From: a virus
Taxonomy: Duplodnaviria; Heunggongvirae; Uroviricota; Caudoviricetes
Length of the DNA: 5,652 bases
Virus record (IMG/VR): IMGVR_UViG_3300014512_000020
Coordinates: 1 to 5,652 of that record
Strand: one strand, 5' to 3'
Of the stretch, positions 1 to 5,652 are shown piece after piece. The notes beneath the pieces are model-generated. The model saw only the letters and a list, made by a program, of their open reading frames with translations. It did not search any database and was not told where the DNA came from. The position numbers were made by a program, and so were the translations under genes. Numbering within the stretch: position 1 is the first letter of the stretch; every line of letters begins with the position of its first letter.

Positions 1-6
1 TATTAT

Positions 7-20
7 CCCGGCCGGGAGGA
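7..20 (+). promoter_or_regulatory. Perfect 10-bp palindrome cccggccggg (7..16) overlapping the Shine-Dalgarno gggagga (14..20) of the esterase gene
   Basis: Read directly: the palindrome is self-complementary; GGAGG at 15..19 lies 4 nt before the ATG at 24. The window starts here, so upstream context is missing. Confidence 0.4.
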
Positions 21-23
21 TTC

Positions 24-1994
24 ATGGCATTTAAACACTATGACGTGGTCAGGGCGGCATCGCCGTCAGACCTTGCGGATGCGCTTGCTCAAAAAATTCG
101 TGAAGGATGGCAACCATACGGCGGGCCGTTTTCTTCGTATACGGATGATGGCGCAGCACTTATTCAGGCGATTGTCGCAGAAGGTAATGTCACCACACCT
201 GTGGTGGTGAAGCCGTCGGATGGAGAAGGCGCAGTTATCAGCACCACCAGCAACCCGGAGTATTACTTTGTTGTTGCCCTGGCCGGGCAGTCAAACGGTA
301 TGGCGTATGGTGAAGGGCTTCCGCTGCCGGAGACATATGACCGTCCGGACCCGCGTATTAAACAGCTGGCGCGTCGCAGCACTGTCACGCCGGGTGGTGC
401 GTCCTGTAACTACAATGACATTATTCCTGCGGACCACTGCCTGCATGATGTTCAGGATTTGAGTAAGTTTTCACACCCGAAAGCCAGTGCAGCTCAGTAT
501 GGATGCGTGGGGCAGGGATTACATATCGCGAAGAAATTGTTGCCGTTTATTCCGGCGAATGCCGGTATTCTTCTGGTTCCGTGCTGCCGTGGTGGTTCTG
601 CATTTTTGGCGGGCGATGAAGGTACCTTCAGCGAATCCACCGGCGCAAGCGAGACCTCGGCACGCTGGGGTGTAGATAAGCCACTGTACAAGGACCTGCT
701 TACCCGTACTCAGGCCGCACTGAAGGCCAACCCTAAAAATATTCTGCTTGCAGTGGTCTGGATGCAGGGCGAGTTTGATTTGAAACAGGGTGCATACGCC
801 ACTCAGCCGGGGCTGTTTGATTCCATGGTGGAAAAATATCGTTCTGACCTGTCGGAATTCGGAGGTCAGTGTCTCGGGGGCTCTCCGTCATCAGTTCCCT
901 GGATTTGTGGCGACACGACCTACTACTGGAAGCAGACTTATTCTTCGCAATACGATGCGGTGTATGGTGCATATAAGACGAAATCCGCAAAAAAAATCTT
1001 CTTTGTGCCGTTTATGACGGATGAAAACGGGCGAAATGTGGGTACCAACGAGCCGTCAGAAGATCCGGATGTTGCGGATATTGGGTATTACGGAGCCGGT
1101 GGTCGAACGGACGCCAAAACCTGGACGACGGCTGACCGTAAAACGCATTTTGGATCATGGGCACGTCGTGGGATTATTTCCGACCGTCTGGCAACGGCGA
1201 TTCTTGTGCATGCCGGGAGAACCGCTGAATTCATTACCGGAAAACAGCCTGATACGGTGAAGCCCACCGGACCTTCCGGTGAAGGTACGGAGAGAGAGCC
1301 GGAAGCTCCGGTCAGTAACCGAACCCTGATGAGTCTGCTGGCGTCCGGCGAAGACCTGGCATCACAGGGCTGGCGCTATTATCACAAACCGGCGAGCGGA
1401 GACAATGTTAACAAAAACATTGCTGAAGCGGTGGTCAGTGATGCGGGGGCTACGGGAGGTAAGGCCCTGCAACTGAATAAACCGGAAAACCACATCTGGT
1501 TTCTGGAGCATGATGCAGCCGGGCAGGGGGCAGAGTTGCTGAAGAAAGGAGGACGTGTGAGCGTACGGTTTAAGTTGCCGGGTTCACTGGTGCCGAATCA
1601 GTTTGCCCTGGGCATTTACTGGCAGTTGTCGTCCCTGCCGGAGGGAGTGACGCTGGCAGAGGAAGGCAACGACATGCTGATGTCCTTCTTCCTGCAGACG
1701 GATGCGACGAACCTGAACGCGATGCACCACAAGAAGCCGAATGCGAAGCTGGATACGTTCGGGGTCTTTGATAACGGATGGCACACACTGGCTTTTGAGT
1801 TTGCCGGAAACAACAGCATTCAGGTGACGCCGGTACTGGATGAGAAACGGGGGACGCCGTTCACACTGGTGAAATCTCCGGCATCAGGGGCGGCGGACAA
1901 ACTGCAACTGACAGGCATATCAAAGGCGGCGACATATACGCTGCTGATTGACAGTGTGAAGGTGGAAGTGAACAACGCGGATGCCGCGGCATGA
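24..1994 (+). CDS. nanS-p: Prophage sialate 9-O-acetylesterase, NanS-p-like (N-terminal DUF1737-like region, SGNH/SASA esterase core, C-terminal putative carbohydrate-binding region), 656 aa
   Basis: Long uninterrupted ORF with good RBS. N-terminus MAFKHYDVVRAASPSDLADALAQKIREGWQPYGG is the characteristic start of prophage NanS-p/933Wp42-type proteins. GQSN block with the putative nucleophile Ser90 (nt 285..296) is typical of the SASA/SGNH family. Size and position upstream of a lysis cassette match Stx-phage architecture. Domain names are from memory, not from a search. Confidence 0.85.
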   Translation: MAFKHYDVVRAASPSDLADALAQKIREGWQPYGGPFSSYTDDGAALIQAIVAEGNVTTPVVVKPSDGEGAVISTTSNPEYYFVVALAGQSNGMAYGEGLPLPETYDRPDPRIKQLARRSTVTPGGASCNYNDIIPADHCLHDVQDLSKFSHPKASAAQYGCVGQGLHIAKKLLPFIPANAGILLVPCCRGGSAFLAGDEGTFSESTGASETSARWGVDKPLYKDLLTRTQAALKANPKNILLAVVWMQGEFDLKQGAYATQPGLFDSMVEKYRSDLSEFGGQCLGGSPSSVPWICGDTTYYWKQTYSSQYDAVYGAYKTKSAKKIFFVPFMTDENGRNVGTNEPSEDPDVADIGYYGAGGRTDAKTWTTADRKTHFGSWARRGIISDRLATAILVHAGRTAEFITGKQPDTVKPTGPSGEGTEREPEAPVSNRTLMSLLASGEDLASQGWRYYHKPASGDNVNKNIAEAVVSDAGATGGKALQLNKPENHIWFLEHDAAGQGAELLKKGGRVSVRFKLPGSLVPNQFALGIYWQLSSLPEGVTLAEEGNDMLMSFFLQTDATNLNAMHHKKPNAKLDTFGVFDNGWHTLAFEFAGNNSIQVTPVLDEKRGTPFTLVKSPASGAADKLQLTGISKAATYTLLIDSVKVEVNNADAAA

Positions 1995-2003
1995 TAAAAA
2001 AAG

Positions 2004-2059
2004 GCCGCCAGCAATGAAGGAAAGGGATGAACTGTGTCCACTACATGAATGCTGGCGGC
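2004..2059. repeat. Inverted repeat gccgccagca / tgctggcggc (10-bp arms, ~36-nt spacer) just after the esterase stop, preceded by an A-run (1994..2002)
   Basis: Read directly from sequence. The spacer is too long for a canonical intrinsic terminator; on the minus strand the arms are followed by a T7 run. Confidence 0.35.
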
Positions 2060-2145
2060 TGGGAAAACGACCACGATGACACCGAAGTTTGCGATATTTT
2101 TCTACAAAAATAAGTAAATCATGTCAACTATCACGGTGAGAAACC

Positions 2146-2328
2146 ATGACATTTCTGAACCAGTTAATGCTGTACTTCTGTACGGCAGTCTGTGTTATGT
2201 ATCTTCTTTCGGGTGGGTACAGGGCAGTGCGCGATTTCTGGCGCAGGCAGATTGATAAAAGGGCCGCTGAGAGAATCAGCGCCAGTCAGTCAGCCGGAAG
2301 CAAACCCGAAGATCCGCTCATTCCGTAG
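2146..2328 (+). CDS. Hypothetical small membrane protein, 60 aa (N-terminal hydrophobic helix LMLYFCTAVCVMYLLSGGY, basic C-terminal tail)
   Basis: ORF with a weak SD-like GGTGAG 5 nt upstream of the ATG; one predicted TM segment; same strand and intergenic placement as neighbouring genes. No homolog recognised. Confidence 0.35.
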   Translation: MTFLNQLMLYFCTAVCVMYLLSGGYRAVRDFWRRQIDKRAAERISASQSAGSKPEDPLIP

Positions 2329-2365
2329 TCACTTTCTTGACAACACCTTTCAACGAGAAAATCCC

Positions 2366-2635
2366 ATGTCAGAAATCACATCCCTGGTCACTGCTGAGGC
2401 AGTGAAGGAAGTCCTGCGCTCTGAAGAAGTCCTGAGCGCACTGAAACAGAAACTCCGCCAGAACCTTGAGGCGCGTCTTGATGCAGAAGTGGATGCCATT
2501 CTGGATGAGCTGCTGGGCGTACCAGCGGTTCCGGAGCCGGAAGGCATTGCGGATGACAGTACTGTTTCAGATGGCGTCGGGTCTCAGCCTGACGGTAGTG
2601 AAGAGCCTCAGCCTGACGGCGAAATGATGATGTAA
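2366..2635 (+). CDS. Hypothetical highly acidic protein, 89 aa (MSEITSLVTAEAVKEVLR...; 21 Asp/Glu vs 6 Lys/Arg; C-terminal repeated QPDG motif)
   Basis: The ORF track gives 2192..2635 (147 aa), but the upstream extension is hydrophobic, low-complexity and overlaps the preceding ORF. ATG at 2366 gives a compact protein with a helical N-terminal half and an acidic, disordered-looking C-terminus. A TTGACA hexamer lies at 2337..2342 but has no good -10 partner. Confidence 0.6.
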   Translation: MSEITSLVTAEAVKEVLRSEEVLSALKQKLRQNLEARLDAEVDAILDELLGVPAVPEPEGIADDSTVSDGVGSQPDGSEEPQPDGEMMM

Positions 2636-2710
2636 CCATGCGCAGGGGGTGTCGGTGTGAGCTGATGCCCCACTTGTTGTTGTGAGCTTCCGGATTGCGG
2701 GAGACGGGGT

Positions 2711-2925
2711 ATGTACCAGATGGAAAAAATCACAACAGGTGTGTCATACACCACGTCAGCGGTGGGAACGGGCTNNNNNNNNNNNNNNNNNNNNNNNNNN
2801 NNNNNNNNNNNNNNNNNNNNGCAATAGGCGTGCTGGGGAGTCTGCTGTTTGGGCTGCTGACATATCTGACTAACCTGTATTTCAAAATCAGAGAGGACCG
2901 GCGTAAGGCGGCGCGGGGAGAGTAA
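2711..2925 (+). CDS. S: Holin S, phage-21 S21-like class II (pinholin-type) with dual-start motif M1-Y-Q-M4; central part masked by N
   Basis: N-terminus [21 protein letters not shown] (2711..2773) and C-terminus [34 protein letters not shown] (2821..2922, stop 2923..2925) both match lambdoid/Stx-phage S21-family holins from memory. GGGAG sits 7 nt upstream of the ATG. The two halves are in different frames across the 46-N run, consistent with a true gap of 47 nt (about 71 aa in total). Confidence 0.75.
2775..2820. other. Run of 46 ambiguous bases (N) inside the holin gene: an assembly gap or masked segment
   Basis: Read directly from sequence. Confidence 0.99.
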
Positions 2926-2926
2926 A

Positions 2927-3280
2927 GTGATGAATAAAAAATATGAACTGGTTGTTAAGGGGATAAATAATTACGGGGATAAGGTTACTGTTACTGTGAA
3001 GCCGGAAGGTGACAGGCAAGCGTCGCTGTTGTTGCCAGATGTGGCGATTAGTCTTGACCGTACTGAAGGTGCCACGCTGGAGTTTTACGAAGCTGAGGCG
3101 AAAAAGCAGGCGAAGCAGTTTTTCATGGATGTTGCTGCCGGGTTATGTGAAGGGGACGAACCGTTGCCGGAAAAGCGCCCCGTAATTTTAGAGGCGCAGA
3201 ATGTGTTGATAACCTACAAAGGAAAGCTACCGGGAAGAATTACTTGTTCTCTGAAGACTCCACCGGAATCACAACCTTAA
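2927..3280 (+). CDS. Hypothetical soluble protein, 117 aa, inserted between holin and endolysin (MMNKKYELVVKGINNYGDKVTVTVKPEGDR...)
   Basis: ORF begins 2 nt after the holin stop (GTG 2927 or ATG 2930) with GGAG at 2917..2920. No TM segment or signal peptide is evident; no family recognised. Compact spacing within the operon supports it being a real gene. Confidence 0.6.
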   Translation: MMNKKYELVVKGINNYGDKVTVTVKPEGDRQASLLLPDVAISLDRTEGATLEFYEAEAKKQAKQFFMDVAAGLCEGDEPLPEKRPVILEAQNVLITYKGKLPGRITCSLKTPPESQP

Positions 3281-3343
3281 TTCACTGACCGGAACAGATA
3301 AACCTGTCCGTGGGCAGAAACCGATAAATCCTGATAAATATCC

Positions 3344-3868
3344 ATGAACGCAAAAATCAGATACGGCCTGTCGGCTGCCGTTCTGGCGCTGGGTGCGCCT
3401 GCGCCTGACATTCTCGACCAGTTTCTGGATGAAAAGGAAGGTAACCACACCACGGCATACCGTGATGGTGCGGGTATCTGGACTATCTGCCGCGGTGCCA
3501 TCCTGGTGGATGGCAAACCTGTCGTTCCGGGCATGAAGTTGTCGAAGGAAAAATGCGACCAGGTTAACGCCATTGAGCGTGATAAAGCGCTGGCGTGGGT
3601 GGAGAAAAACATCAGAGTGCCACTGACCGAACCCCAGAAAGCGGGGATCGCGTCATTCTGTCCGTACAACATTGGTCCCGGTAAGTGTTTCCCGTCGACG
3701 TTTTATAAACGAATTAATGCAGGTGATCGCAGGGGAGCGTGTGAGGCGATTCGCTGGTGGATTAAGGACGGTGGCAGAGACTGCCGTATTCGTTCAAACA
3801 ACTGCTACGGTCAGGTATCCCGTCGTGACCAGGAGAGCGCGCTGGCGTGCTGGGGAATCGACAGATAA
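3344..3868 (+). CDS. R: Endolysin R, T4-lysozyme-like glycoside hydrolase family 24 muramidase, phage-21 R21-like; possible N-terminal SAR segment; 174 aa
   Basis: Catalytic triad spacing E32-x8-D41-x5-T47 (EGNHTTAYRDGAGIWT), characteristic of true lysozymes. The C-terminal segment KRINAGDRRGACEAIRWWIKDGG resembles R21 and P1 Lyz. The N-terminal Gly/Ala-rich weakly hydrophobic stretch YGLSAAVLALGAPAP is consistent with, but short for, a signal-anchor-release domain. Confidence 0.9.
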   Translation: MNAKIRYGLSAAVLALGAPAPDILDQFLDEKEGNHTTAYRDGAGIWTICRGAILVDGKPVVPGMKLSKEKCDQVNAIERDKALAWVEKNIRVPLTEPQKAGIASFCPYNIGPGKCFPSTFYKRINAGDRRGACEAIRWWIKDGGRDCRIRSNNCYGQVSRRDQESALACWGIDR

Positions 3869-3958
3869 GCAGAATATTTTGCTGAAAAATAAGGTATGGC
3901 CACGCGGGCGGATAACACGAAATCCTGCGAACTGGCGAAACGTAAGTGAATAAAAGTA

Positions 3959-3997
3959 AAAACCCCGTTTGTTGGCACCAAGCGGGGTTTTGTGTTT
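3959..3997 (+). terminator. Intrinsic-terminator-like hairpin: stem aaaaccccgtttg / caagcggggtttt (13 bp with one G-U), 7-nt loop, followed by a T-rich tract; A-run upstream makes it potentially bidirectional
   Basis: Read directly: arms 3959..3971 and 3979..3991, loop ttggcac, then gtgttt. It lies between the endolysin stop and the small ORF at 4028. Confidence 0.55.
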
Positions 3998-4027
3998 CCT
4001 GACTCCGGAAAAGTCAAAGGAGAAAGT

Positions 4028-4165
4028 GTGTTTGATTTTAGCAAACTGATTCGGGAGATTCGAGTGATGGCTGAAAAATTATCCACCTGGAAGTTCATTC
4101 TTATCTGGCTGGTGTTTGTGATTATGGCCTCCGGTTATTTCATCGGTCAGATACGCTGGTGGTGA
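4028..4165 (+). CDS. Hypothetical small single-pass membrane protein, 45 aa from GTG 4028 (or 32 aa from ATG 4067), translationally coupled to Rz
   Basis: Strong SD AGGAG (4018..4022) 5 nt before GTG 4028. Hydrophobic core WKFILIWLVFVIMASGYFIGQI. Stop TGA at 4163..4165 is 1 nt before the Rz ATG at 4167. No family recognised. Confidence 0.45.
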   Translation: MFDFSKLIREIRVMAEKLSTWKFILIWLVFVIMASGYFIGQIRWW

Positions 4166-4166
4166 A

Positions 4167-4604
4167 ATGAACCGCGTACTGTGCGTGGTCATCATTGCCC
4201 TGCTGGTGGCCTGTGGTGCGCTTAGTCTGGGGCTGAATCATTACCGTGATAACGCCATGACCTACAAAGAGCAGCGCGATAAAGCCACATCCATCATCGC
4301 TGATATGCAGAAGCGTCAACGTGATGTAGCAGAACTCGACGCCAGATACACAAAGGAGCTTGCTGATGCTAACGCGACTATCGAAAGTCTCCGTGCTGAT
4401 GTTTCTGCTGGTCGTAAGCGCCTGCAAGTCGCCGCCACCTGTGCAAAGTCAACGACCGGAGCCAGCAGCATGGGCGATGGAGAAAGCCCAAGACTTACAG
4501 CAGATGCTGAACTCAATTATTACCGTCTCCGAAGTGGAATCGACAAGATAACCGCGCAGGTTAACTACCTGCAGGAATACATCAGGACGCAATGCCTGAA
4601 ATAA
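4167..4604 (+). CDS. Rz: Rz, i-spanin (inner-membrane spanin subunit), 145 aa
   Basis: N-terminal TM helix, then the NHYRDNA...QRDK...RQRDVAELDARYTKELADA segment closely matching lambda Rz; coiled-coil-rich periplasmic domain; sits downstream of the endolysin. Confidence 0.9.
   Translation: MNRVLCVVIIALLVACGALSLGLNHYRDNAMTYKEQRDKATSIIADMQKRQRDVAELDARYTKELADANATIESLRADVSAGRKRLQVAATCAKSTTGASSMGDGESPRLTADAELNYYRLRSGIDKITAQVNYLQEYIRTQCLK
4366..4551 (+). CDS. Rz1: Rz1, o-spanin (outer-membrane lipoprotein subunit), embedded in the +1 frame inside Rz, 61 aa
   Basis: AAAGGAG (4353..4359) 6 nt before ATG 4366. Signal peptide MLTRLSKVSVLMFLLVVSAC with lipobox VSAC, followed by the Pro-rich mature part CKSPPPVQSQRPEP, as in lambda Rz1. 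The ORF track starts at 4360 (TTG); ATG 4366 is preferred. Confidence 0.8.
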   Translation: MLTRLSKVSVLMFLLVVSACKSPPPVQSQRPEPAAWAMEKAQDLQQMLNSIITVSEVESTR

Positions 4605-4635
4605 TTTTTTTGCAAATCACAAAGTCAATTTAATG

Positions 4636-4658
4636 AGCCTCGCGATGCGGGGCTTTTT
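4636..4658 (+). terminator. Intrinsic terminator: stem agcctcgc / gcggggct (8 bp, one G-U), loop gat, followed by ttttt
   Basis: Read directly; GC-rich stem and T5 run about 30 nt downstream of the Rz stop. Confidence 0.55.
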
Positions 4659-4665
4659 GCAATAA

Positions 4666-4690
4666 ATGCGTACCGCAACGCATGTTTTTT
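4666..4690 (+). terminator. Second intrinsic terminator in tandem: stem atgcgt / acgcat (6 bp), loop accgca, followed by g + tttttt
   Basis: Read directly; T6 run at 4685..4690. Confidence 0.5.
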
Positions 4691-4805
4691 ACACCGAACC
4701 TGCCCCTTTGGAATGGGCCTTTGAGGATACCAGTTAGTGCTGGCGAGCCTCGGTGGGCTGGTTTCCTGTGCGGCAAAGGTTCATTTCAAAGAGTAGGTAC
4801 ACGCT

Positions 4806-5303
4806 ATGAAATCATTAACCCTCTTCAATCAACCAATTCGTATCGGTGAAGATGGCATGATCTGCCTCACTGATATGTGGAAAGCCAGTGGTAAAAGTGA
4901 ATCTGAATCGCCTTACCACTACCTGCGAAACAAGCAGACCAAAGAGTTCTTAGCCGAGCTGGAGAAAAACCACGAATCTGTGGTTTTTACTGAGCGCGGT
5001 GTACACGGTGGAACATATGGCGGGAAGTTTGTTGCTTACGATTATGCGGCTTGGTTAAACCCCGGGTTCAAGTACGCGGCCTATAAAGTCCTCGATGACT
5101 ACTTCACCGGAGAACTTCAGCATCGCAACAGCTTAAGTGCGCAGCTCAACATGAAATGTCATGAGTTTGACCAGAAGAAAGACATGGCGAGCTTCTGCGG
5201 ACAAGGGCTGGCAGCATGGCGCTATACGAAGCCAGTGTTGGTCGCTGAGATTAACTCCCTGGCTAACCAGCTGCAGATTACGATCCCCGGGCTTCCGGGA
5301 TGA
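4806..5303 (+). CDS. KilA-N-like domain protein (putative DNA-binding / antirepressor-like), 165 aa
   Basis: N-terminal segment LTLFNQPIRIGEDGMICLTDMWKASGKSESESPYHYLRNKQTKEFLAEL fits the KilA-N pattern from memory (conserved Gly, aliphatic-x-T-D/E-hydrophobic-x-K-A-x-G-K, then W/Y-L-R and T-x-E-F). A Bro-N alternative is not excluded without an HMM search. Confidence 0.7.
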   Translation: MKSLTLFNQPIRIGEDGMICLTDMWKASGKSESESPYHYLRNKQTKEFLAELEKNHESVVFTERGVHGGTYGGKFVAYDYAAWLNPGFKYAAYKVLDDYFTGELQHRNSLSAQLNMKCHEFDQKKDMASFCGQGLAAWRYTKPVLVAEINSLANQLQITIPGLPG

Positions 5304-5557
5304 GTGATCGTGTTATTGAATGCGCCTCCAGAGCGGGGCGCGACTTCTCAGAGTTCATGAAAGGCGAGAAGGGCATGATGGAAGCATTGGCCTCGGTGGA
5401 TGAGTTTGGCGAGCAGCTGCGCCTCAACGGCTGTGTCAATCATCACTTTGTTAGCTACATGATGCGGAACTCGATCATGCAGGCATTCATGGACATGGCA
5501 AAAGCCGAGAGGAAAGAAGAGCGCCGGCGTAAGCGAGCGGAAGCAAAAGCGAAGTAG
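5300..5557 (+). CDS. Hypothetical protein, 85 aa, with a Lys/Arg/Glu-rich C-terminal tail (AKAERKEERRRKRAEAKAK); start overlaps the KilA-N stop (ATGA)
   Basis: The 4-nt ATGA start/stop overlap at 5300..5303 implies translational coupling to the upstream gene. No family recognised. Confidence 0.55.
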   Translation: MSDRVIECASRAGRDFSEFMKGEKGMMEALASVDEFGEQLRLNGCVNHHFVSYMMRNSIMQAFMDMAKAERKEERRRKRAEAKAK

Positions 5558-5597
5558 CCATTACAAAGCCTATCTACGGGTGGGCTTGATAATGGCT
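5556..5597. repeat. Nested inverted repeats overlapping the stop of the last ORF: outer arms agccatta / taatggct, inner arms aagcc / ggctt
   Basis: Read directly: outer arms 5556..5563 and 5590..5597, inner arms 5566..5570 and 5583..5587. No T-run follows, so it is not a canonical terminator. Confidence 0.35.
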
Positions 5598-5609
5598 TAT
5601 ACCCTACAC

Positions 5610-5635
5610 GGGATAACTTAACTGATATCCCTTTT
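5610..5635 (+). terminator. Weak terminator-like hairpin: gggata / tatccc with a 10-nt loop, followed by tttt
   Basis: Read directly; short stem and short T-run, hence low confidence. Confidence 0.3.
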
Positions 5636-5652
5636 AAAGGATAAAGGTATTC

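Follow-up and report, generated by a model that had tools for sequence, protein, structure and literature searches.

What is a strong hairpin, followed at once by a small open reading frame (ORF), doing between the endolysin gene R and the spanin gene Rz of a lambdoid prophage? The question is raised by the viral record IMGVR_UViG_3300014512_000020 (Caudoviricetes), of which positions 1 to 5,652 were analysed; this stretch of 5,652 nt is called the window, and all positions refer to it. Gene content and matches in Pfam and PHROG identify the window as the late region of a lambdoid E. coli prophage of the H-19B/Shiga toxin (Stx) type. Comparison of related loci shows that positions 3945-4165 form a single, self-contained accessory cassette that moves horizontally among temperate phages and is lodged here between the endolysin and spanin genes. 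It is composed of a predicted bidirectional intrinsic terminator, a leader of about 36 nt with a strong Shine-Dalgarno sequence, and a 45-codon gene with a GTG start for a putative bitopic inner-membrane peptide. R is the upstream neighbour and lies outside the cassette. As to function, we tentatively favour a type I toxin-antitoxin-like arrangement, in which a late membrane peptide, gated by the terminator and by an antisense RNA, would have been inserted into a hot spot between R and Rz.

The layout agrees with an earlier note made from the letters of the window, which had reported a gap of about 300 bp, a hairpin with a 13-bp stem between an A-run and a T-run, and a 45-aa ORF with an AGGAG-type Shine-Dalgarno sequence, a 5-nt spacer and a stop 1 nt before Rz. 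The gap from the R stop (3868) to the Rz start (4167) measures 298 nt; the hairpin is found at 3959-3991; the ORF has AAGGAG (4017-4022), the 5-nt spacer, GTG at 4028 and TGA at 4163-4165, and one base (4166) separates it from the ATG of Rz.

Over the 316 nt around the cassette, identity with phage H-19B and with many Stx1a, Stx2a and Stx2c phages is 95-96%, and in E. coli AR_0013 (L001) identity over window positions 3860-4175 is 100%. The full 316-nt stretch was found in 871 of 5,426 complete E. coli genomes; its first approximately 165 nt, through the hairpin, were found in 2,065.

Hairpin and gene as one mobile unit

In the Qin prophage of E. coli K-12 rrrQ overlaps rzpQ with zero gap, and the unit in the R-Rz gap is therefore read as an insertion, as the earlier note had proposed. 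The GC content of the cassette is 43.5%, compared with 55% in R and 52% in Rz.

The comparisons further indicate that the hairpin belongs to the ORF and not to R. In E. fergusonii the ORF is located between a GH19 endolysin gene and a DUF2514 spanin gene, in Salmonella P22-like prophages another holin and lysozyme precede it, and in Citrobacter the gene upstream is yet another one. All of these lysis-cassette copies show the same A-tract, hairpin, T-tract, leader of about 36 nt, Shine-Dalgarno sequence and GTG, and a stop 1 nt before the spanin ATG. The TGA-N-ATG junction is thus kept even with a spanin of a different family (DUF2514), which bears out the coupling to Rz that the earlier note had suggested. 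Homologues occur as well among the baseplate genes of Salmonella phage SEN34 and in the tail region of Pseudomonas phage YMC11/02/R656. Further ones stand between the lambda-like tail genes K and I/J, within a tail accessory region, between head genes, and beside ParE/RelB/HicAB modules upstream of terminase. Because the hairpin and ORF also occur together at tail, baseplate, head and toxin-antitoxin (TA) module sites, a spanin-specific role is unlikely.

In every copy a GC hairpin with A/T flanks ends 23-39 nt ahead of the start codon (21 variants, dG -14 to -26 kcal/mol). The A-rich flank is present in 21 of 21 hairpin variants, independent of the upstream gene, and on this comparison it marks the 5' edge of the mobile unit. 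The leader is homologous among the Salmonella, Citrobacter, SEN34 and Pseudomonas copies.

Three prophages (L142-L144, positions 3001-3135) carry a distant member, MNSSKLIKELRMM...IRWW, alone with its own hairpin just upstream of the terminase genes, in an island with ParE/RelB-, YafQ/RelB- and HicAB-type toxin-antitoxin modules. Between R and the hairpin, a non-coding stretch of approximately 90 nt (3869-3958) is kept in more than 2,000 E. coli genomes, and about 75% of its length (estimated by eye) can still be made out in Salmonella P22-like prophages (L006 3860-3930). A 17-codon ORF in this stretch (3897-3950) does not have a conserved frame in L015.

The 45-codon gene and its product

The ORF is regarded as a gene because its alleles keep start, length and stop and because its frame gives low ratios of nonsynonymous to synonymous divergence (dN/dS). 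GTG, 45 codons and TGA are present in 17 of 17 distinct nucleotide alleles of the fetched loci, drawn from E. coli, E. fergusonii, Salmonella, Citrobacter and viral contigs. Pairwise Nei-Gojobori estimates give dN/dS of 0.06-0.2 at dS of 0.6 to >2, where dS is saturating; the other two plus frames contain stops and give ratios of at least 0.9. Stop-free stretches on the minus strand differ in length among lineages, and the coding strand is identified by the plus-frame dN/dS. These estimates point to a real gene under strong purifying selection. A longer reading of 57 aa from GTG 3992 begins inside the hairpin tail and is not conserved.

The product matches PHROG 6632, a family without assigned function, from end to end (E 1e-29), and no relative was found in Pfam, NCBIfam, PADLOC or PDB. 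PGAP calls the ORF in some genomes (WP_000459345.1, hypothetical protein) and leaves it unannotated in many; the record of phage CP-1639 lists the peptide as 'putative bacteriophage protein'. These three entries represent the same protein family, and none of them mentions the linkage to a hairpin or an antisense unit. A profile search against 1.84 billion protein representatives delivered 35 clusters only, with homologue identities from 67% down to approximately 30% (by eye). The family signature, (D/N)(F/I)SK(L/I)I(R/K)E(L/I)RxMxE(K/R)LxxW(K/R)F, lies in the cytoplasmic N-terminal helix; the TM helix and the C-terminus are variable, and about half of the members end in (R/K)WW.

Hydropathy analysis delivers a single hydrophobic segment at residues 23-39 (best 17-mer, Kyte-Doolittle value 2.51), with lysine and arginine mostly on its N-terminal side. 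AlphaFold2 (AF2) places helices at residues 4-17 and 20-44 (mean predicted local distance difference test score, pLDDT, 84.7). The predicted topology is an amphipathic cytoplasmic helix at 4-17 with the N-terminus inside, one transmembrane (TM) helix at 20-44 and a C-terminal RWW. The view of the earlier note that this is a genuine small hydrophobic gene product with a single TM segment is borne out by dN/dS, hydropathy and the AF2 model. By its length of 45 aa, its hydropathy and its modelled structure, the product agrees with type I toxins in being a small (<60 aa), hydrophobic peptide predicted to insert into the membrane.

Met14 is invariant across all distant homologues. The GGAG 9 nt upstream of it is formed by the codons of Arg9 and Glu10, of which the latter is always GAG and never GAA. 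A second product of 32 aa, translated from ATG 4067, is possible.

Structure and conservation of the hairpin

The hairpin reads AAAACCCCGTTTG-ttggcac-CAAGCGGGGTTTT, with ataaaagta before and gtgtttcc after it. Its 13 stem pairs comprise 12 Watson-Crick pairs and one G-U pair, six of the pairs being GC, and the minimum free energy is -21.5 kcal/mol in a 71-nt context; among the terminator-like sites found in the window it has the longest stem. The usual signature of an intrinsic terminator, a GC-rich stem-loop followed by a U-tract, is seen in both directions, with the tail UUUUGUGUUU on the plus strand and UUUUUACUUUUAU on the minus strand, and termination is accordingly predicted both ways. 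Both flanks are kept in the 21 variants. The outer part of the stem is conserved and the inner part covaries: RNAalifold detects double changes at four stem pairs, and in L145 and L147, which carry the same ORF, the inner stems are wholly swapped and remain complementary. Compensatory changes thus preserve the hairpin in about 20 sequence variants. Taken with the purifying selection on the ORF frame, they mark the features noted at this locus as more than chance.

When hairpin, leader and 84 nt of coding sequence were folded together, RNAalifold found no conserved structure besides the hairpin. A pyrimidine-rich tract after the hairpin is able to pair with the Shine-Dalgarno sequence (UUUCCU/AGGAGA here; CCUUG/CAAGG, CCUUCU/AGAAGG and CCCCAUG/CAUGAGG in other leaders). 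The Shine-Dalgarno region is predicted to be mostly paired in 10 of 12 lineages, yet the fold z-scores are not significant against shuffled sequences.

A predicted antisense unit on the minus strand

On the minus strand, the complement of codons 3-6 forms the extended -10 sequence TGCTAAAAT, directed towards the hairpin. From the position of this putative promoter and the minus-strand terminator, a cis-antisense RNA of about 80 nt is predicted. Of 15 lineages, 14 have the minus-strand motif TGnTAnnnT opposite the first 45 coding nucleotides; its T-7 stands at coding nucleotide 8 in 13 lineages (nucleotide 5 where the N-terminus is one codon shorter) and at nucleotide 19 in L154. It persists while codons 3-6 encode DFSK, DISK, NSSK, EFIK, HISR or YFSK, and if synonymous codons were chosen freely for each protein sequence, it would be expected at a frequency of 0.06-0.19 per lineage. 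Synonymous divergence in codons 2-23 is roughly 40% below that in codons 24-45. The codons AGC (Ser5), CGA (Arg12, rare) and TTA (Leu18, rare) are invariant; at Arg43, Gly40 and Ile39, three or four codons occur per position.

Comparable sites occur in cassettes with other peptides. A cassette with the non-homologous ORF orfA has TGCTAGACT at the same position, as read directly from its sequence, and an O157-type cassette has a minus-strand promoter match of 10/12 (TGGACA-18-TATACT) that points at the hairpin.

Other cassettes in the same gap

Window positions 3869-4166 were compared with L014, L015, L016 and about 60 IMG/VR loci. This comparison identifies the gap between R and Rz in E. coli lambdoid prophages as a hot spot for alternative arrays of one to four unrelated small single-TM ORFs. 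An O157 prophage has a 37-aa ORF (PHROG 4493) behind the same hairpin, and another prophage has ORFs of 60 aa and 43 aa (PHROGs 1115 and 4906) in that position. An array of four ORFs starts with a relative of the 45-codon gene that has a different C-terminus, and a 28-aa ORF is also among the gap ORFs. In every array the same hairpin stands ahead and the last ORF abuts Rz. Four other small gap ORFs delivered nothing in Pfam, NCBIfam, PADLOC and PDB, and their PHROG families are without assigned function. Neither the hot spot nor the fact that the hairpin travels with the ORF instead of R was part of the earlier note.

Hairpin, leader and start codon are common to cassettes whose peptides are not homologous. 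The leader of orfA is about 85% identical (by eye) to that of a member of the 45-codon family, and its cassette shares with that family the hairpin and the bases TCT AGC AA of codons 4-6. The 60-aa (orf60) and O157 cassettes share their leader with the Salmonella-type 45-codon gene up to the start codon. Profile alignment of the 45-codon family with orfA and with the 37-aa ORF (hhalign) gave no homology beyond the C-terminal (R/K)WW. A more far-reaching and rather unlikely extension would make the hairpin, the leader and the first six codons a portable chassis, effectively a gene for an antisense RNA, to which temperate phages of enterobacteria and Pseudomonas attach different small membrane peptides, with one to four such peptides collecting in the R-Rz gap of lambdoid and Stx prophages.

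The E. fergusonii prophage L010 (3690-4140) carries two tandem units of hairpin and small TM ORF between its GH19 endolysin and DUF2514 spanin genes. The upstream unit, with an ORF ending in VKWW, finishes in TGGTGGTGAtATG, where TGAtATG is followed by 13 codons that run into the second hairpin; this stretch looks like the fossil of an earlier spanin junction.

Interpretation and alternatives

Under the type I-like reading, the plus-strand terminator would stop ordinary RNA polymerase, and the peptide, together with Rz through the 1-nt stop/start junction, would be made only from the late transcript antiterminated by Q. On the minus strand, the extended -10 promoter in codons 3-6 would fire towards the hairpin; the antisense transcript would start at about 4029, cross the Shine-Dalgarno sequence and leader and stop at the hairpin, whose A-rich flank would supply its U-tract. 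This RNA of about 80 nt would keep leaky translation shut off in the lysogen, and late transcription would outpace it once the prophage is induced. The peptide itself would be a membrane-active, potentially depolarising late protein, and in a cassette of pinholin and signal-arrest-release (SAR) endolysin a depolarising peptide would favour lysis. Small toxic peptides with antisense RNAs are known from prophages, and hokW-sokW of the Stx phage Sp5 aids phage release (PMC8621323).

Several points weigh against this reading. The antisense promoter and its RNA are predictions from sequence. The -35 element is poor (3/6), L145 has no extended -10 and in L154 the motif is displaced by 11 nt towards the interior of the gene; hairpin and leader are kept in the orf60-type cassette, which shows no convincing antisense promoter. 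The lineages share ancestry and are not fully independent, so that a joint probability of the motif is overstated. AT-rich early codons are also favoured for translation initiation, a preference that leaves the conserved C of the TG element unaccounted for. Classical type I toxins have a promoter of their own for the toxin mRNA; here no plus-strand sigma-70-like site was found between 3869 and 4028, and the 5' edge of the unit is the terminator itself. The gene is found in only 9 of 72,556 plasmid records, which makes a role in plasmid stability unlikely; the cassette is absent from PADLOC, and many small membrane proteins are not toxins.

A chance ORF beside the ordinary terminator of the endolysin gene can hardly be credited: the lack of PGAP annotation in many genomes and of a Pfam or NCBIfam family would suit it, but start, length and stop are kept across E. 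coli, E. fergusonii, Salmonella and Citrobacter at the low dN/dS given above, related copies occur in Pseudomonas phages, and the hairpin follows the ORF rather than R. A plain, insulated late-gene moron deserves more weight and is nevertheless rather unlikely in our judgement. There the hairpin would act on the plus strand only, as a read-in insulator or as a 5'/3' stabiliser of processed late mRNA, with no antisense RNA, and the peptide would be a membrane protein without toxicity, expressed late or in the lysogen and serving for example in superinfection exclusion or in the modification of a host membrane protein, like HK97 gp15-type morons. The position between genes that are adjacent elsewhere (K-12 Qin; the tail and baseplate sites), a GC content below that of the flanks, the occupation of typical moron sites in tail operons and the conservation of the T-tract on the plus strand speak for it, as does the cytoplasmic N-terminal helix, the most conserved part of the peptide and suggestive of a specific protein partner. 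It leaves unexplained the constant co-travel of the A-tract, needed only for minus-strand termination, and the persistence of TGnTAnnnT through amino-acid changes. No promoter for expression in the lysogen was found between hairpin and ORF, and the terminator stands upstream of a gene that itself runs into Rz, where a classical moron has its own promoter upstream and its terminator downstream.

A dedicated lysis component appears improbable. It would regulate, or act together with, the Rz/Rz1 spanin or the pair of pinholin and SAR endolysin, possibly in two forms (45 aa from GTG 4028, 32 aa from ATG 4067) like the dual starts of holin and antiholin. That the stop lies 1 nt before the i-spanin start in every lysis-cassette copy, that the same slot holds other small TM ORFs in other prophages, and that Met14 and its upstream GGAG are invariant all fit such a role. 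On the other side, homologues with the same hairpin stand in tail, baseplate, head and TA-island contexts without an adjacent lysis gene, and the companion holin, endolysin and spanin families are unrelated among copies. Holins have a TM domain with a highly charged hydrophilic C-terminal domain; here GQIRWW alone follows the TM helix, and neither Pfam nor PHROG delivered a holin match. The peptide has neither the periplasmic coiled-coil domain nor the lipobox of spanins. Less probable still is an IsrK-like device, in which an upstream plus-strand promoter would yield a short RNA ending at the hairpin and the read-through leader ORF would merely switch on the coupled Rz. The Gifsy-1 locus isrK-orf45-anrP has the same succession of terminator, 45-codon ORF and coupled downstream gene (PMC4825925), and the approximately 90 nt upstream of the hairpin are conserved as non-coding sequence, also in Salmonella. 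Against it, the 5' boundary of the unit is the A-tract and the sequence upstream varies by context, neither a plus-strand promoter nor a match to Rfam IsrK was found, and strong purifying selection acts on the peptide sequence, as it would not on a mere leader ORF.

The type I-like reading had been a side remark of the earlier note, in the form of a hairpin that might end an antisense transcript and a type-I-toxin-like peptide; with the minus-strand motif, the conserved flanks and the shared leaders it has become the best-supported candidate. The interpretation of that note has held in part: the insertion, the single-TM gene (now with a modelled TM helix and the N-terminus inside) and the Rz junction stand, and the lysis regulator or spanin-associated factor it had suggested is unlikely in view of the units found among tail, baseplate, head and TA genes of unrelated phages.

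The cassette is part of the lysis module of H-19B-type and many Stx1/Stx2 phages, yet it is unannotated or listed as 'hypothetical'. Lysis governs toxin release in these phages, and if the peptide is membrane-active and antisense-gated, it would represent an unrecognised control layer on lysis and hence on the release of Shiga toxin, as well as a new type I-like toxin family. If the chassis is real, there would be a widespread, unrecognised class of antisense-gated late membrane peptides, carried by at least 16% of the complete E. coli genomes, and its peptides could tune lysis timing or act as toxins in prophage addiction or abortive infection, also in Shiga-toxin phages. The cassette would also show that accessory genes of phages can travel with an upstream bidirectional terminator instead of the classical moron layout of promoter, gene and terminator. 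For annotation a simple rule follows: a hairpin, then 23-39 nt later a Shine-Dalgarno sequence and a non-ATG start, indicates real small genes that gene callers miss.

Features of the window and neighbouring genes

Table 1. Features of the cassette and of the surrounding late genes in the window.
Feature	Position	Strand	Evidence or remark
SASA-family esterase	24-1994
DUF1378	2146-2328
DUF826	2366-2635
Class II holin	2711-2925		partly N-masked
YdfR/DUF1327	2930-3280
Endolysin R, phage lysozyme with SAR-type N-terminus	3344-3868	+	Pfam Phage_lysozyme E 3e-24; PHROG 7 endolysin
A-rich 5' flank gtgaataaaagta	3945-3958		read on the minus strand, U-tract UUUUUACUUUUAU after the stem
Predicted cis-antisense RNA of about 80 nt	3951-4029	-	covers start codon, Shine-Dalgarno sequence and leader; ends with hairpin and U-tract
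Predicted bidirectional intrinsic-terminator hairpin	3959-3991	both	13-bp stem, 7-nt loop
T-rich tract TTTTGTGTTTCCTG	3988-4001	+	plus-strand U-tract
Leader with Shine-Dalgarno sequence AAGGAG	3992-4027	+	AAGGAG at 4017-4022
45-codon gene, GTG start, product MFDFSKLIREIRVMAEKLSTWKFILIWLVFVIMASGYFIGQIRWW	4028-4165	+	dN/dS, PHROG 6632, AF2, hydropathy
Predicted antisense promoter	4035-4063	-	extended -10 TGCTAAAAT (4043->4035); weak -35 TCGAAT (4063->4058); 17-nt spacer
Possible internal start, 32-aa form	4053-4069	+	GGGAG (4053-4057), 9 nt, ATG 4067 (Met14)
Stop/start junction TGAaATG	4163-4169	+	translational coupling of Rz to the small ORF (predicted)
Rz i-spanin	4167-4604	+	Pfam Phage_lysis E 7.5e-37
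Rz1 lipoprotein gene, embedded in Rz	about 4366-4551		lipobox VSAC in the Rz1 frame
KilA-N protein gene	4806-5303

The order of genes and elements is given in Table 1. In the holin gene the middle is masked by 46 N (2775-2820). The endolysin has 174 aa, compared with 177 aa in close relatives; the difference of three residues falls in the SAR-like hydrophobic segment at its N-terminus (3344-3430), which reads LSAAVLALGAPAP in the window and LSAAVLALIAAGAPAP in L014. Rz is annotated as frameshifted in the closest genome match (L001 5308-5774, E. coli AR_0013). In the window it has 145 aa, compared with 153-165 aa in relatives, and the Pfam Phage_lysis model is still fully covered. Directly after Rz/Rz1 and before the KilA-N gene there are two further terminator-like hairpins (4634-4690), of which one, agcctcgcgatgcggggctttttg, was located by eye around 4636-4659 and the other, ATGCGTACCGCAACGCAT followed by GTTTTTT, lies at 4666-4690.

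The intergenic region after the esterase (1995-2145) contains a long inverted repeat, GCCGCCAGCA ... TGCTGGCGGC, followed on the minus strand by a run of seven T; it resembles the terminator of a minus-strand RNA, and Rfam delivered no match to this region. A 2026 preprint places the small RNA (sRNA) genes PasA and PasC between sialate esterase and holin.

Comparison with known systems

The sRNAs known from prophages (AgvB, AsxR, IsrK, STnc100 and PasA-D) do not match the cassette, either by Rfam model or by published location. A search of the whole window in Rfam at E<=1 gave only a sub-threshold rimP-leader match, which reflects the terminator. AgvB, AsxR and the EcOnc entries covered in the list of Tree et al. 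(2014) differ from the cassette in sequence, and among about the first 33 entries of their Table S2 none is located in the R-Rz gap of those Sakai prophages that could be placed. PasA-D (Zhu, Shabalina and Storz 2026) are located between esterase and holin or elsewhere, and not between R and Rz. A literature search for small proteins between R and Rz and for antisense RNAs near Rz1 found nothing specific.

Among described arrangements, the dual starts of holin and antiholin (lambda S105/S107, S21 68/71) share with the cassette a small membrane protein of the lysis region with two conserved in-frame starts. They differ in that the present peptide has one TM helix and no hydrophilic charged C-terminus, that its gene occurs outside lysis cassettes as well, and that its N-terminal extension would be 13 residues instead of 2-3. 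In Gifsy-1, the terminator and the 45-codon ORF coupled to the next gene were described as a regulatory device in a lambdoid late region, with an RNA regulator acting on its read-through mRNA (Hershko-Shalev et al. 2016, PMC4825925). The regulator there is a same-strand short RNA from the late promoter, and the locus is situated just after Q, unlike the R-Rz position of the cassette; sequence similarity was not detected, Gifsy-1 being absent from the tblastn matches.

Morons in the definition of Hendrix and Juhala (HK97 gp15, lambda bor and lom) are, like the cassette, extra genes of temperate phages between adjacent late genes, with deviating GC content and a factor-independent terminator. 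In the cassette the terminator stands upstream, no sigma-70 promoter was found before the gene, and the 5' chassis of hairpin, leader and start is reused by ORFs that are not homologous.

SymR is a cis-antisense RNA that overlaps the 5' part of the symE toxin mRNA, in a type I toxin-antitoxin layout. The peptide is without sequence relation to known toxins, its gene lacks a recognisable dedicated toxin promoter, so that expression would come from the late transcript, and SymE itself is not a membrane peptide, unlike the product here. As in SymR/symE, Sok/hok and Rdl/ldr, the cassette is carried by a mobile element or prophage and has a gene for a short hydrophobic peptide together with a predicted antisense RNA of about 80 nt, whose promoter would lie just inside the coding sequence and which would cover the start codon and the Shine-Dalgarno sequence and end at an intrinsic terminator. 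In its architecture, the cassette thus probably resembles SymR/symE most closely.

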